Positions 5,459-6,017 of a DNA stretch of 64,000 bases are shown here, piece by piece. The DNA lies in IMG/VR virus record IMGVR_UViG_3300030333_002313; one strand, given 5' to 3'. Position 1 is the stretch's first letter; each line of letters starts with the position of its first letter. Made by a program: the position numbers and the translations under genes. The notes beneath the pieces are model-generated. The model had not been told where the DNA came from, did no database searches, and was given only the letters and a program-made list of their open reading frames with translations. This DNA comes from an uncultured virus (IMG/VR IMGVR_UViG_3300030333_002313). Its lineage: Duplodnaviria > Heunggongvirae > Uroviricota > Caudoviricetes.

Positions 5459-5488
5459 AAAAAAAGAGATCCAACAAGGGATCTCTTT
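5459..5488 (-). terminator. Intrinsic terminator after the DUF4278 gene
   Basis: AAAGAGATCC...GGATCTCTTT followed by a T-run. Confidence 0.85.
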
Positions 5489-5526: not shown

Positions 5527-5661
5527 TTAAGCGTATGCTTTTTGAACCTTCAGTCCACGATACATAAGATCGTGTCTGTTACGCTTTGCATTCTCATCGA
5601 GAACCTTAGCGTTGTACTCTTTAGTGTCGTATTCGACACCACGGTAGATGACTTTTGCCAT
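5527..5661 (-). CDS. DUF4278 (downstream peptide) family protein, 44 aa
   Basis: MAKVIYRGVEYD...LMYRGLKV with two YRG motifs; GGAG SD before ATG 5661. Confidence 0.9.
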   Translation of the reverse strand: MAKVIYRGVEYDTKEYNAKVLDENAKRNRHDLMYRGLKVQKAYA

Positions 5662-5694
5662 TGTTTTACTCCAAAGTAGTAGGATTTTTAGCCC

Positions 5695-5943
5695 CGTTCC
5701 TTCAGACATTTGCGTCCCAATTACATTCCAATCCTACAGTCTCAACCAAATGAATCTTATAGATTTCAATGATCTCAGCCTTTTCATCTTCAGACAGTTG
5801 TTTATGATTCCTTGTTCGTTGTATCTTTTCAGCTACATCTTCACAAGAAATTGCTGTTGCCAGCACTGCTAGAAGAGATAGGATGGGTAACATTGGGATG
5901 AACGCTCCGTTCCGTGACCTACTTGCACCCCGAAGGGCGAACG
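5695..5943 (-). ncRNA. Double glutamine riboswitch (glnA / Downstream-peptide family) with an embedded ORF
   Basis: Two copies of CGTTC-R-[stem]-YGCAA...GGAACG: 5943-5908 (stem CCC-TTCG-GGG) and 5904-5695 (stem TCCCAAT/ATTGGGA around about 170 nt); lies directly upstream of the DUF4278 gene. Confidence 0.8.
5702..5893 (-). CDS. 63 aa protein with a signal-peptide-like N-terminus and two Cys, nested in the riboswitch
   Basis: MLPILSLLAVLATAISCEDVAEKIQ...GLECNWDANV; GGAG lies 11 nt before ATG 5893. Confidence 0.75.
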   Translation of the reverse strand: MLPILSLLAVLATAISCEDVAEKIQRTRNHKQLSEDEKAEIIEIYKIHLVETVGLECNWDANV

Positions 5944-5969
5944 TATGCATATGTTAGCATATGCACAAC

Positions 5970-6017
5970 TATTTAGCAACTTTTGTAGCTAAAACTACTT
6001 TTTGTATCTTCGTGAAC
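5970..6017 (-). promoter_or_regulatory. Late-type box with upstream NtcA-like sites
   Basis: CTAAATA at 5970-5976; perfect GTA-N8-TAC at 5985-5998; GTA-N8-AAC at 6004-6017. Confidence 0.65.

Follow-up and report, generated by a model that had tools for sequence, protein, structure and literature searches.

A gene-bearing, nested double glutamine riboswitch is predicted in front of a DUF4278 gene of marine cyanophages

Glutamine riboswitches of two classes are found in front of genes for small DUF4278 proteins. According to passages of Klahn 2018 (PMC6212724), validated aptamers of this kind are bound by L-glutamine and turn on the translation of DUF4278/IF17. The first class, glutamine-I (Rfam RF01739), is represented in these passages by the Synechocystis gifB/IF17 leader; the second, glutamine-II (Downstream-peptide, RF01704), precedes DUF4278 microprotein genes of Prochlorococcus and Synechococcus (passages of PMC6698751 and PMC6212724). 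In this work we analysed a leader of the same kind in a stretch of 64,000 nucleotides (nt) from an uncultured Caudoviricetes virus (IMG/VR record IMGVR_UViG_3300030333_002313), hereafter the window. The leader lies on the - strand, as do all its elements below, within what its signals mark as a small T4-like cyanophage cassette running from promoter to terminator (5998-5463), upstream of a gene of 44 amino acids (aa) that resembles nitrogen regulators. Compared with its relatives, it is one composite glutamine riboswitch with two predicted cores, one inside the other. The inner core carries a complete 63-aa open reading frame (ORF), ORF63, in its P2 loop. Taken as a whole, a nested double glutamine sensor with ORF63 in the inner P2 and with competing outputs is the explanation that we consider best, and we hold it to be fairly probable.

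The leader shares with glutamine-I the CGUUC/GAACG P1 helix, a P2 after A6, the CG(C/G) linchpin junction, the AGUA/GAA loop-E and a P3, as well as its place in a 5′ leader ahead of a DUF4278 gene, and its ORF-less phage relatives exceed the Rfam cut-off. Unlike in glutamine-I, the phage P3 is formed by strands of two different units and surrounds a permuted core, 170 nt of predicted gene fill one P2 loop, and the Rfam score of the window falls far short of the cut-off. The inner core resembles glutamine-II in its pocket (CGUUCA...CGC...GGAACGG), in its C:G linchpin and in having no loop-E, and the downstream gene kind and the host group are also the same. In contrast to glutamine-II, however, the window shows no 3′ pseudoknot hairpin bearing GGAACG in its loop (RNAalifold) and reaches 18.2 bits against a cut-off of 33.

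Tandem riboswitches, such as the tandem glycine aptamers and the 'tandem' glnA RNAs of Weinberg et al. 2010 (passages of PMC2864571), likewise have two cores of one class per leader and a short conserved linker, but their cores lie side by side, whereas the phage cores are nested and share a helix. Passages of PMC2864571, PMC6212724, PMC10265488, PMC9964418 and PMC9004378 place glnA RNAs in cyanophages and 'in tandem'. Neither these passages nor a full-text literature search gave a description of a nested pair or of a gene inside an aptamer; Ames & Breaker 2011 lies outside this scope and may bear on tandem forms. Riboswitch aptamers are usually taken as compact non-coding domains, and covariance-model searches, which assume so, miss this RNA completely. 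Here the strands that build the sensor would lie as much as 250 nt from one another, and its P3 would house a second sensor and one of the P2 loops a gene, which suggests that split or gene-bearing aptamers are underrepresented in riboswitch censuses. ORFs are known in peripheral loops of other structured RNAs, for instance the homing-endonuclease genes that T4-like phages carry in their group I introns, and in leader-peptide attenuators. As in these systems, the ORF of the window sits within a hairpin loop of a functional RNA, where ribosome traffic can remodel a regulatory RNA. Unlike in them, the RNA is a predicted metabolite sensor, the start and the stop of the ORF are made from sensor strands, and the protein is neither a nuclease nor a mere leader peptide.

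Two units can be read in the leader. Unit A is CGTTC-G-CCC[TTCG]GGG-TGCAAGTA-GGTCA-C-GGAACG (5943-5908; in RNA letters CGUUC-G-CCC[UUCG]GGG-UGCAAGUA-GGUCA-C-GGAACG). After the linker GAG (5907-5905), unit B runs from CGTTC-A-TCCCAAT (5904-5892) through 170 nt to ATTGGGA-CGCAAA-TGTCT-GAA-GGAACG (5721-5695). These elements had been listed in a preliminary description of the window, and all are present base for base at 5943-5695 (-). The nested ORF of that description is likewise there: its ATG (5893-5891) overlaps the 5′ stem strand, and its 63 codons end in W-D-A-N-V and in a TGA (5704-5702) inside CTGAA.

The arrangement is not peculiar to this phage. BLASTN matched the region in 225 phage records, all of them cyanophages, and an annotated small coding sequence occupies the same place before the DUF4278 gene in P-TIM40, metaG-MbCM1, P-RSM6 and ACG-2014b. 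The two halves of unit B do not vary in the alignment, and the enclosed ORF falls to 22-56% protein identity. For the comparison, 80 IMG/VR loci were gathered through the DUF4278 protein, a search blind to the RNA, and further loci through the pattern of the A/B junction; among the first 80 loci found by this pattern, 68 proved to be true leaders. Altogether 190 leaders were parsed, of which 179 are complete and 163 distinct. Sorted by long loops, the 163 comprise 78 in which unit B alone has one (the window type), 23 in which unit A alone does, 20 with two long loops and 42 with two short units. In host cyanobacteria, a scan of genome contigs with the junction pattern gave 0/119 tandem-like forms among the matches listed, which were chance matches only. 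The split arrangement recurs in 98 distinct related sequences, far beyond chance expectation, and the layout, on this comparative evidence, is widespread in marine cyanophages.

The long-range stem UCCCAAU/AUUGGGA (5892..5898 with 5715..5721) closes 170 nt in the window and keeps 7/7 base pairs (bp) in the minimum free energy (MFE) fold. It is one of 37 different complementary P2 stems among the 98 long unit-B sequences (UCCCA/UGGGA, UCUAU/AUAGA, UCAUCA/UGAUGA and UCCUUA/UAAGGA are examples), and the 43 long unit-A sequences have 15. RNAalifold also reports covariation of P2 in the short forms. The covariation proposed for TCCCAAT/ATTGGGA is therefore borne out by 37 complementary versions.

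The two units are bound together by their loop-E. No unit owns a complete one, since AGUA occurs only in unit A, whose AAGUA has no GAA before its GGAACG, and GAA only in unit B, which has no AGUA. In the window, the AGUA half (5923-5920) stands opposite GAA 5703-5701 of unit B; the structural role of the junction that carries AGUA is taken from passages of PMC6698751. The bases right after the AAGUA of unit A are complementary to those right before the GAA of unit B and form a cross helix between the units, found as AGUCG/CGACU, AGUCA/UGACU, AGUCAA/UUGACU, AGCCGACG/CGCCGACU, GGACGACG/CGCCGCCC or AGUCU/AGACU. Over 32 haplotypes, 77.8% of its positions are paired compared to 71.4 +/- 1.6% after shuffling of the partners, and 0/2000 shuffles reached as high. 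Among the 42 ORF-less leaders the pair at its far end is U-A in 16, G-C in 8 and A-U in 6. The pairing of GGTCA with TGTCT, already suspected from the window alone, thus covaries across relatives, and units A and B are interlocked as had been claimed, rather than independent tandem aptamers.

Which P1 strands pair with each other can be followed through the linchpin. In the glutamine-II crystal structure the C at the third position of CGC forms a pair with the G after GAACG (C19:G41), and glutamine-I has an equivalent pair (passages of PMC6698751); the Rfam glutamine-I consensus contains CGG...GGAACGC. When the third base of the unit A CGN is compared with the base after the GGAACG of unit B, this outer linchpin is C:G in 140/140 and G:C in 23/23 distinct sequences, and, while the outer linchpin covaries, the GGAACG of unit A is still followed by G. 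A search for leaders with C after the unit A GGAACG gave L353 and L392, where unit B has CGG, a reciprocal inner swap to G:C, and L384, where the unit B junction is CGA. With 37 ORF-less leaders RNAalifold predicts the outer P1 together with a triloop-closed inner P1 as nested three-way junctions, and the A/B linker, always of 3-4 nt, fits a loop closing the inner P1. A nested fold, in which an outer glutamine-I core encloses a permuted inner core, is thus the fold supported by covariation. It had been put forward as an alternative in the preliminary description, and the cross helix, both linchpins, RNAalifold and the Rfam model on ORF-less relatives now speak for it.

Drawn on the window, the glutamine-I combination of P1 and linchpin would occur twice, as 5943-5939/5699-5695 with C5925:G5694 and as 5904-5900/5912-5908 with C5712:G5907. 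The outer core begins with the invariant P1 5′ strand CGUUC (5939..5943), whose pairing with GAACG 5699-5695 we infer from linchpin covariation, RNAalifold and the Rfam alignments of relatives. The outer P2 hairpin CCC-UUCG-GGG (5937-5928), flanked by G5938 and U5927 (5927..5938), follows, and then the outer junction GC-AAGUA (5920..5926) with C5925 as the linchpin base. The cross helix strand GGUCA (5915..5919), which serves as outer P3, pairs with UGUCU 5708-5704 as G.U, G-C, U.U, C-G and A-U. Next comes the inner P1 hairpin predicted by RNAalifold (5900..5913), made of G-GAACG 5913-5908, the triloop GAG 5907-5905 with the linchpin partner G5907, and CGUUC 5904-5900. P2 directly after CGUUC-A, with covariation, is the RF01739 order, and in the inner P2 the 5′ strand contains the AU of the ORF63 start codon and the 3′ strand encodes ..N-W-D. 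The inner junction CGC-AAA (5709..5714) supplies C5712. The 3′ side closes (5694..5708) with UGUCU, the loop-E GAA 5703-5701, the outer P1 strand G-GAACG 5700-5695 and the linchpin G5694. A loop-E beside P3 is found across the units and not within them, the inner core having none.

The glutamine riboswitch named in the preliminary description was not recovered by Rfam on the intact sequence: at gathering thresholds (35 bits for RF01739, Glutamine; 33 bits for RF01704, Glutamine-II) the whole 64-kb window gave 0 matches. We ascribe the low score to the 206-nt insert in P3 together with the exchanges to G and U in unit A. In relatives, short versions of the units do exceed the RF01739 cut-off, at 35.1-39.6 bits. 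With ORF-less relatives of the window subtype, RF01739 joined the 5′ half of unit A to the 3′ half of unit B in a single aptamer whose P3 loop holds 38-48 nt; these nested alignments scored 39.6-43.6 bits in 5/7 loci (L098 and L109 43.6, L189 42.9, L166 40.3, L129 39.6).

ORF63 (5702..5893, 63 aa plus stop) is, by the pattern of substitutions, a real conserved gene under purifying selection. An ORF is intact in 141/141 long loops, 133 by the strict rule and 8 whose stop precedes the end of GGAACG by 32-36 nt. The ratio of nonsynonymous to synonymous rates (dN/dS), computed after removing the codons that overlap the aptamer, has a median of 0.23 for B-loop ORFs (<1 in 265/266 pairs) and of 0.19 for A-loop ORFs (<1 in 167/167 pairs), so that the conservation on which the reading of a nested gene depends is found, with selection around 0.2. 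As many as 132 of the 141 loop proteins, from both loops, belong to one BLAST single-linkage family, unit-A ORFs (phrog_6471) included; 8 form a second family and 1 stands alone. Many unit-A ORFs terminate in the UAA of GCAAGUAAG, in another frame relative to the core.

ORF63 matches the phrog_504 profile, a family without known function, over residues 10-62 (E 8.1e-16), and two cysteines (C17 and C57) are invariant across 85 aligned sequences. The AlphaFold model is a helix-loop-helix (helices 17-28 and 35-53; mean predicted local distance difference test score 76.6), for which Foldseek gave no match in the PDB at E <= 0.001. Pfam returned sub-threshold noise only for ORF63, a word-based protein search two relatives with no names, and a protein atlas neighbours in unnamed viral clusters (0.81-0.85). 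The phrog_504 type can be modelled as a protein of about 50-68 aa with a helix-loop-helix, a hydrophobic N-terminus and two invariant cysteines. The signal peptide previously attributed to ORF63 could not be confirmed: the N-terminus is hydrophobic, but many members of the family have just 9-12 residues before the invariant Cys, and neither a basic n-region nor a canonical lipobox is seen by eye.

Some further observations concern the loop ORFs. The second family is found in the unit-A loops of L121, L125, L143, L146, L169, L193, L198 and L202; its proteins (MTKALLLLAWVPLLS...SCD..ELMDIVKNDD...C, 67-68 aa, stop 32-36 nt before the GGAACG end) have a more signal-peptide-like N-terminus. An 82-codon ORF (5702-5950, -) starts at an ATG at 5950, upstream of the predicted transcription start, and runs through unit A in frame into ORF63. 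A public 82-aa protein cluster, P0001, is 92% identical to it, from which it appears that gene callers sometimes translate the aptamer itself. Inside ORF63, a terminator-like hairpin (5852-5865, -) consists of 5 bp followed by AUUUCUUGUG; there are 2 such sites compared to 0.5 expected in shuffles, and it may be due to chance.

The regulated output would be the 44-aa ORF at 5661-5527 (5527..5661), probably a short DUF4278 member. It matches phrog_5049 (E 8.6e-20), its two YRG motifs are conserved in the DUF4278-like protein, and its P-TIM40 homologue is annotated as DUF4278 domain-containing. Pfam PF14105 gives 23.0 bits (E 1.1e-4), just under the cut-off of 25.3. The DUF4278 gene expected at this place is therefore present. 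Between it and the aptamer lies the putative expression platform (5662..5693), with ..CUACUACUUUGGAG.. conserved in relatives and a Shine-Dalgarno (SD) sequence GGAG at 5672-5669. RNAalifold found no conserved pairing around this SD. Candidate pairings judged by eye are a small CU(A)C/GGAG hairpin, UACUU with the AAGUA strand, and, in the CGG-type, CUCUU with AAGGAG. Leaders with a CGG-type unit A (L090, L096, L110, L191) have CUCUUUAAC directly after the linchpin C; its CUCUU is complementary to the SD AAGGAG, a pairing that fits the anti-SD model proposed for gifB. The window type is G-rich at that place instead.

These elements can be assembled into a mechanism. The outer core would be a canonical glutamine-I aptamer with the cross helix GGUCA/UGUCU as its P3; in place of the P3 tetraloop it would carry a second, circularly permuted core with a triloop-closed P1, the C5712:G5907 linchpin and no loop-E, and the P2 of this inner core would close around the complete ORF63. 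The initiation region of ORF63 consists of inner-core strands, with the likely SD GGAG (5908-5905) in the inner P1 and triloop and the AUG in P2, so that folding of the sensor should occlude initiation; its last six codons and stop would form the 3′ halves of P2, of the cross helix and of loop-E. A folded, glutamine-stabilised sensor would thus hide the ORF63 ribosome-binding site, and ribosomes translating ORF63 to the stop inside the cross helix and loop-E would unwind both cores. At low glutamine ORF63 would be made and DUF4278 off; at high glutamine ORF63 would be shut and DUF4278 on, a direction proposed because the cellular homologues turn DUF4278/IF17 ON with glutamine. Binding of glutamine and control by this leader are likewise drawn by analogy, and we infer the competition between ORF63 translation and folding, with its two outputs, from the way in which the strands overlap. 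The identical P1 strands would permit a swap between nested and tandem pairing, a possibility for the switching step.

In its full form, a ribosome-gated riboswitch in which glutamine buries the ORF63 start and opens the IF17-like gene, and in which translating ribosomes dismantle both pockets, so that the phage toggles between two small proteins, is a tentative proposal; we hold it possible and would not call it likely. If the competition is true, this would be a natural case of an mRNA on which translation gates ligand sensing and ligand sensing gates translation, and a compact viral readout of host glutamine (carbon/nitrogen) status during infection.

ORF63 could also be a passenger. According to this explanation the nested riboswitch is real, the ORF occupies a tolerant hairpin loop, comparable to the ORFs of group I introns, and uses the cassette promoter, no coupling with sensing has been selected, and the sensor folds on ribosome-free mRNAs or at ribosome-free moments. 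The P2 loops of ORF-less relatives are free in length and sequence, as a tolerant loop would be, and all four combinations of long loops occur in the sample (78, 23, 20 and 42 of 163, above), from which the ORF appears dispensable for the switch. Metatranscriptomes point in the same direction: run X18, from another study, contains window-matching flanks between which the 170-nt loop (window 5725-5896) is replaced by a 137-nt allele, the 52-aa ORF of L006-L009, so that the nested gene seems to vary as a cassette between near-identical leaders. On the other side, start and stop are rigidly tied to the core, with the initiation region and the last codons packed into aptamer strands. The ATG of loop ORFs lies 9-16 nt after the start of CGUUC, with one A-loop ORF (21 nt) as the lone exception, and the stop of unit-B ORFs is the U[GA]A of CU[GA]AAGGAACG in 94/98. 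Moreover, the GGAG-forming GAG linker tracks the presence of the ORF in the window subtype (X5), being found in 47/50 ORF-bearing and in 0/7 ORF-less leaders. Compact overlap alone could account for the placement of start and stop and for the linker. We regard an uncoupled passenger as rather unlikely, and less so than the other alternatives below.

Coming back to the nested sensor with competing outputs, a number of points weigh against it. As to regulation, the ON/OFF direction is borrowed from cellular homologues because the DUF4278 platform gave no conserved pairing. With its stop 40 nt ahead of the DUF4278 AUG, ORF63 could also be coupled to DUF4278 in a positive sense, through terminating ribosomes; such positive coupling and a passenger ORF are equally allowed by the data alongside a glutamine-dependent choice. 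As to the fold, relaxed Rfam searches touch unit A only (Glutamine-II 18.2 bits, Glutamine 15.1 bits), and the cross helix of the window itself forms 4/5 pairs, with a U.U. In unit A, G5938 and U5927 replace the otherwise invariant A and C that flank P2. This exchange occurs jointly in 5/5 distinct window-type sequences. An A.C to G.U exchange is isosteric in RNA, and for this reason we read the pair as a tolerated variant and not as decay.

Other points concern the comparisons and the energies. Since the P1 strands are invariant, only the linchpin pairs speak to the choice of P1 partner, and the G:C state of the 23 sequences may go back to one evolutionary event, as may the inner swap of the 2 loci. 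Half of the loci came from a pattern that fixes the A/B junction sequence, and sequences were parsed only if a stem of 3 bp or more closed the loop, so that the existence of the P2 stem is partly by construction, which does not apply to the variety of stems. Calculated nearest-neighbour energies do not favour the nested fold, nor do they separate it from the tandem one: the MFE structure, in which only the long P2 stem is retained, has -75.6 kcal/mol, the constrained nested fold -67.5 and the constrained tandem fold -66.8. Marine metatranscriptome contigs identical to the window (5557-5923, 367 nt with 0 differences at depth 84, and 5601-5923) are a weak indication that a single RNA-library molecule carries unit A together with ORF63 and DUF4278, for contigs cannot give RNA ends or strand and DNA can occur in RNA libraries.

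The near-equality of the constrained folds would also suit two independent tandem aptamers, A (5943-5908) and B (5904-5695), each on its own P1, with the ORF in the hairpin of B and the cross helix as at most a kissing contact; a tandem form may be a folding intermediate. Each unit does carry its own CGUUC...GGAACG, Rfam matches single units in some relatives, and 'tandem' glnA RNAs are mentioned in passages of PMC2864571 and PMC10265488. Independent aptamers should, however, each have their own P1 with a paired linchpin. In the 42 ORF-less leaders (outer linchpin CG in 32, GC in 10) both linchpins are paired in 42/42 in the nested arrangement compared to 32/42 in the tandem one; both are unpaired in 10/42 when tandem and in 0/42 when nested. 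The tandem pairing leaves both linchpins mismatched (G.G and C.C) in 23/23 CGG-type sequences and gives mismatches in L353 and L392 as well, all of which become Watson-Crick when nested. Neither unit has its own loop-E, and the local P3 mini-hairpins considered as a substitute (AG-CCGA-CU) were rejected, as the outer pairs of these hairpins are lost in several haplotypes with a retained cross helix. Finally, the nested Rfam alignments in relatives outscore the single units. We therefore consider independent tandem aptamers improbable and retain the nested fold.

That unit B is no sensor at all, its ends being conserved for the protein termini (M.., ..CxWDAN) and its aptamer likeness coincidental, has in its favour a C-terminal WDA[NK] conserved at the protein level, but is scarcely credible, as the same nucleotides are present and above the Rfam cut-off in relatives without any ORF, the stem covaries as the encoded residues change (UGGGA to UAAGGA or UGAUGA), and a second group of ORFs reads in another frame relative to the core, with its stop in GCAAGUAAG.

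Transcription of the cassette would start from a putative sigma-70-type promoter recognised by eye (5951..5979), with -35 TTGCTA at 5979-5974, a 17-nt spacer and -10 TAACAT at 5956-5951; relatives have TTGACT-N17-TATAAT at the equivalent place. A consensus promoter scanner did not list TTGCTA-N17-TAACAT. The predicted transcription start is at about 5944, 1 nt before CGUUC; RNA-library contigs end at 5923-5926, and one variant at 5952. An inverted repeat, TGCATATG-CTAA-CATATGCA (5946..5965), flanks the -10 hexamer, and repeat arms of at least 6 nt flank it in 109/146 distinct relatives, where the arms differ yet stay complementary (GGTCTAT/ATAGACC, TGTGTTA/TAACACA, GGTATG/CATACC). About 8 nt upstream of the -35 is a putative NtcA-type box, GTA-N8-TAC (GTAgttttagcTAC, 5985..5998), a pattern present within 75 nt upstream in 113/146 distinct related leaders. 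Its conservation upstream of the cassette promoter suggests that, besides the riboswitch, transcription is under host nitrogen control.

The cassette is closed by a predicted intrinsic terminator with a 10-bp stem and a U run (5463..5488), and is flanked by a gene for a 2-oxoglutarate (2OG)-Fe(II) oxygenase (6728-6060) and by talC (5425-4754). No contig of RNA runs X15 and X16 covers talC or the oxygenase gene, which carries no weight as absence. By Rfam, no manA RNA is found in the window, where the terminator leads straight to talC; in four relatives, however, a manA RNA (RF01745, 142-188 bits) lies between DUF4278 and talC (L001 915-1109, L003 896-1081, L014 1101-1298, L016 1109-1281). One IMG/VR leader, L410, seems to have three CGUUC words near its position 330 together with a long hairpin and two AAGUA junctions, and may be a variant with three cores.

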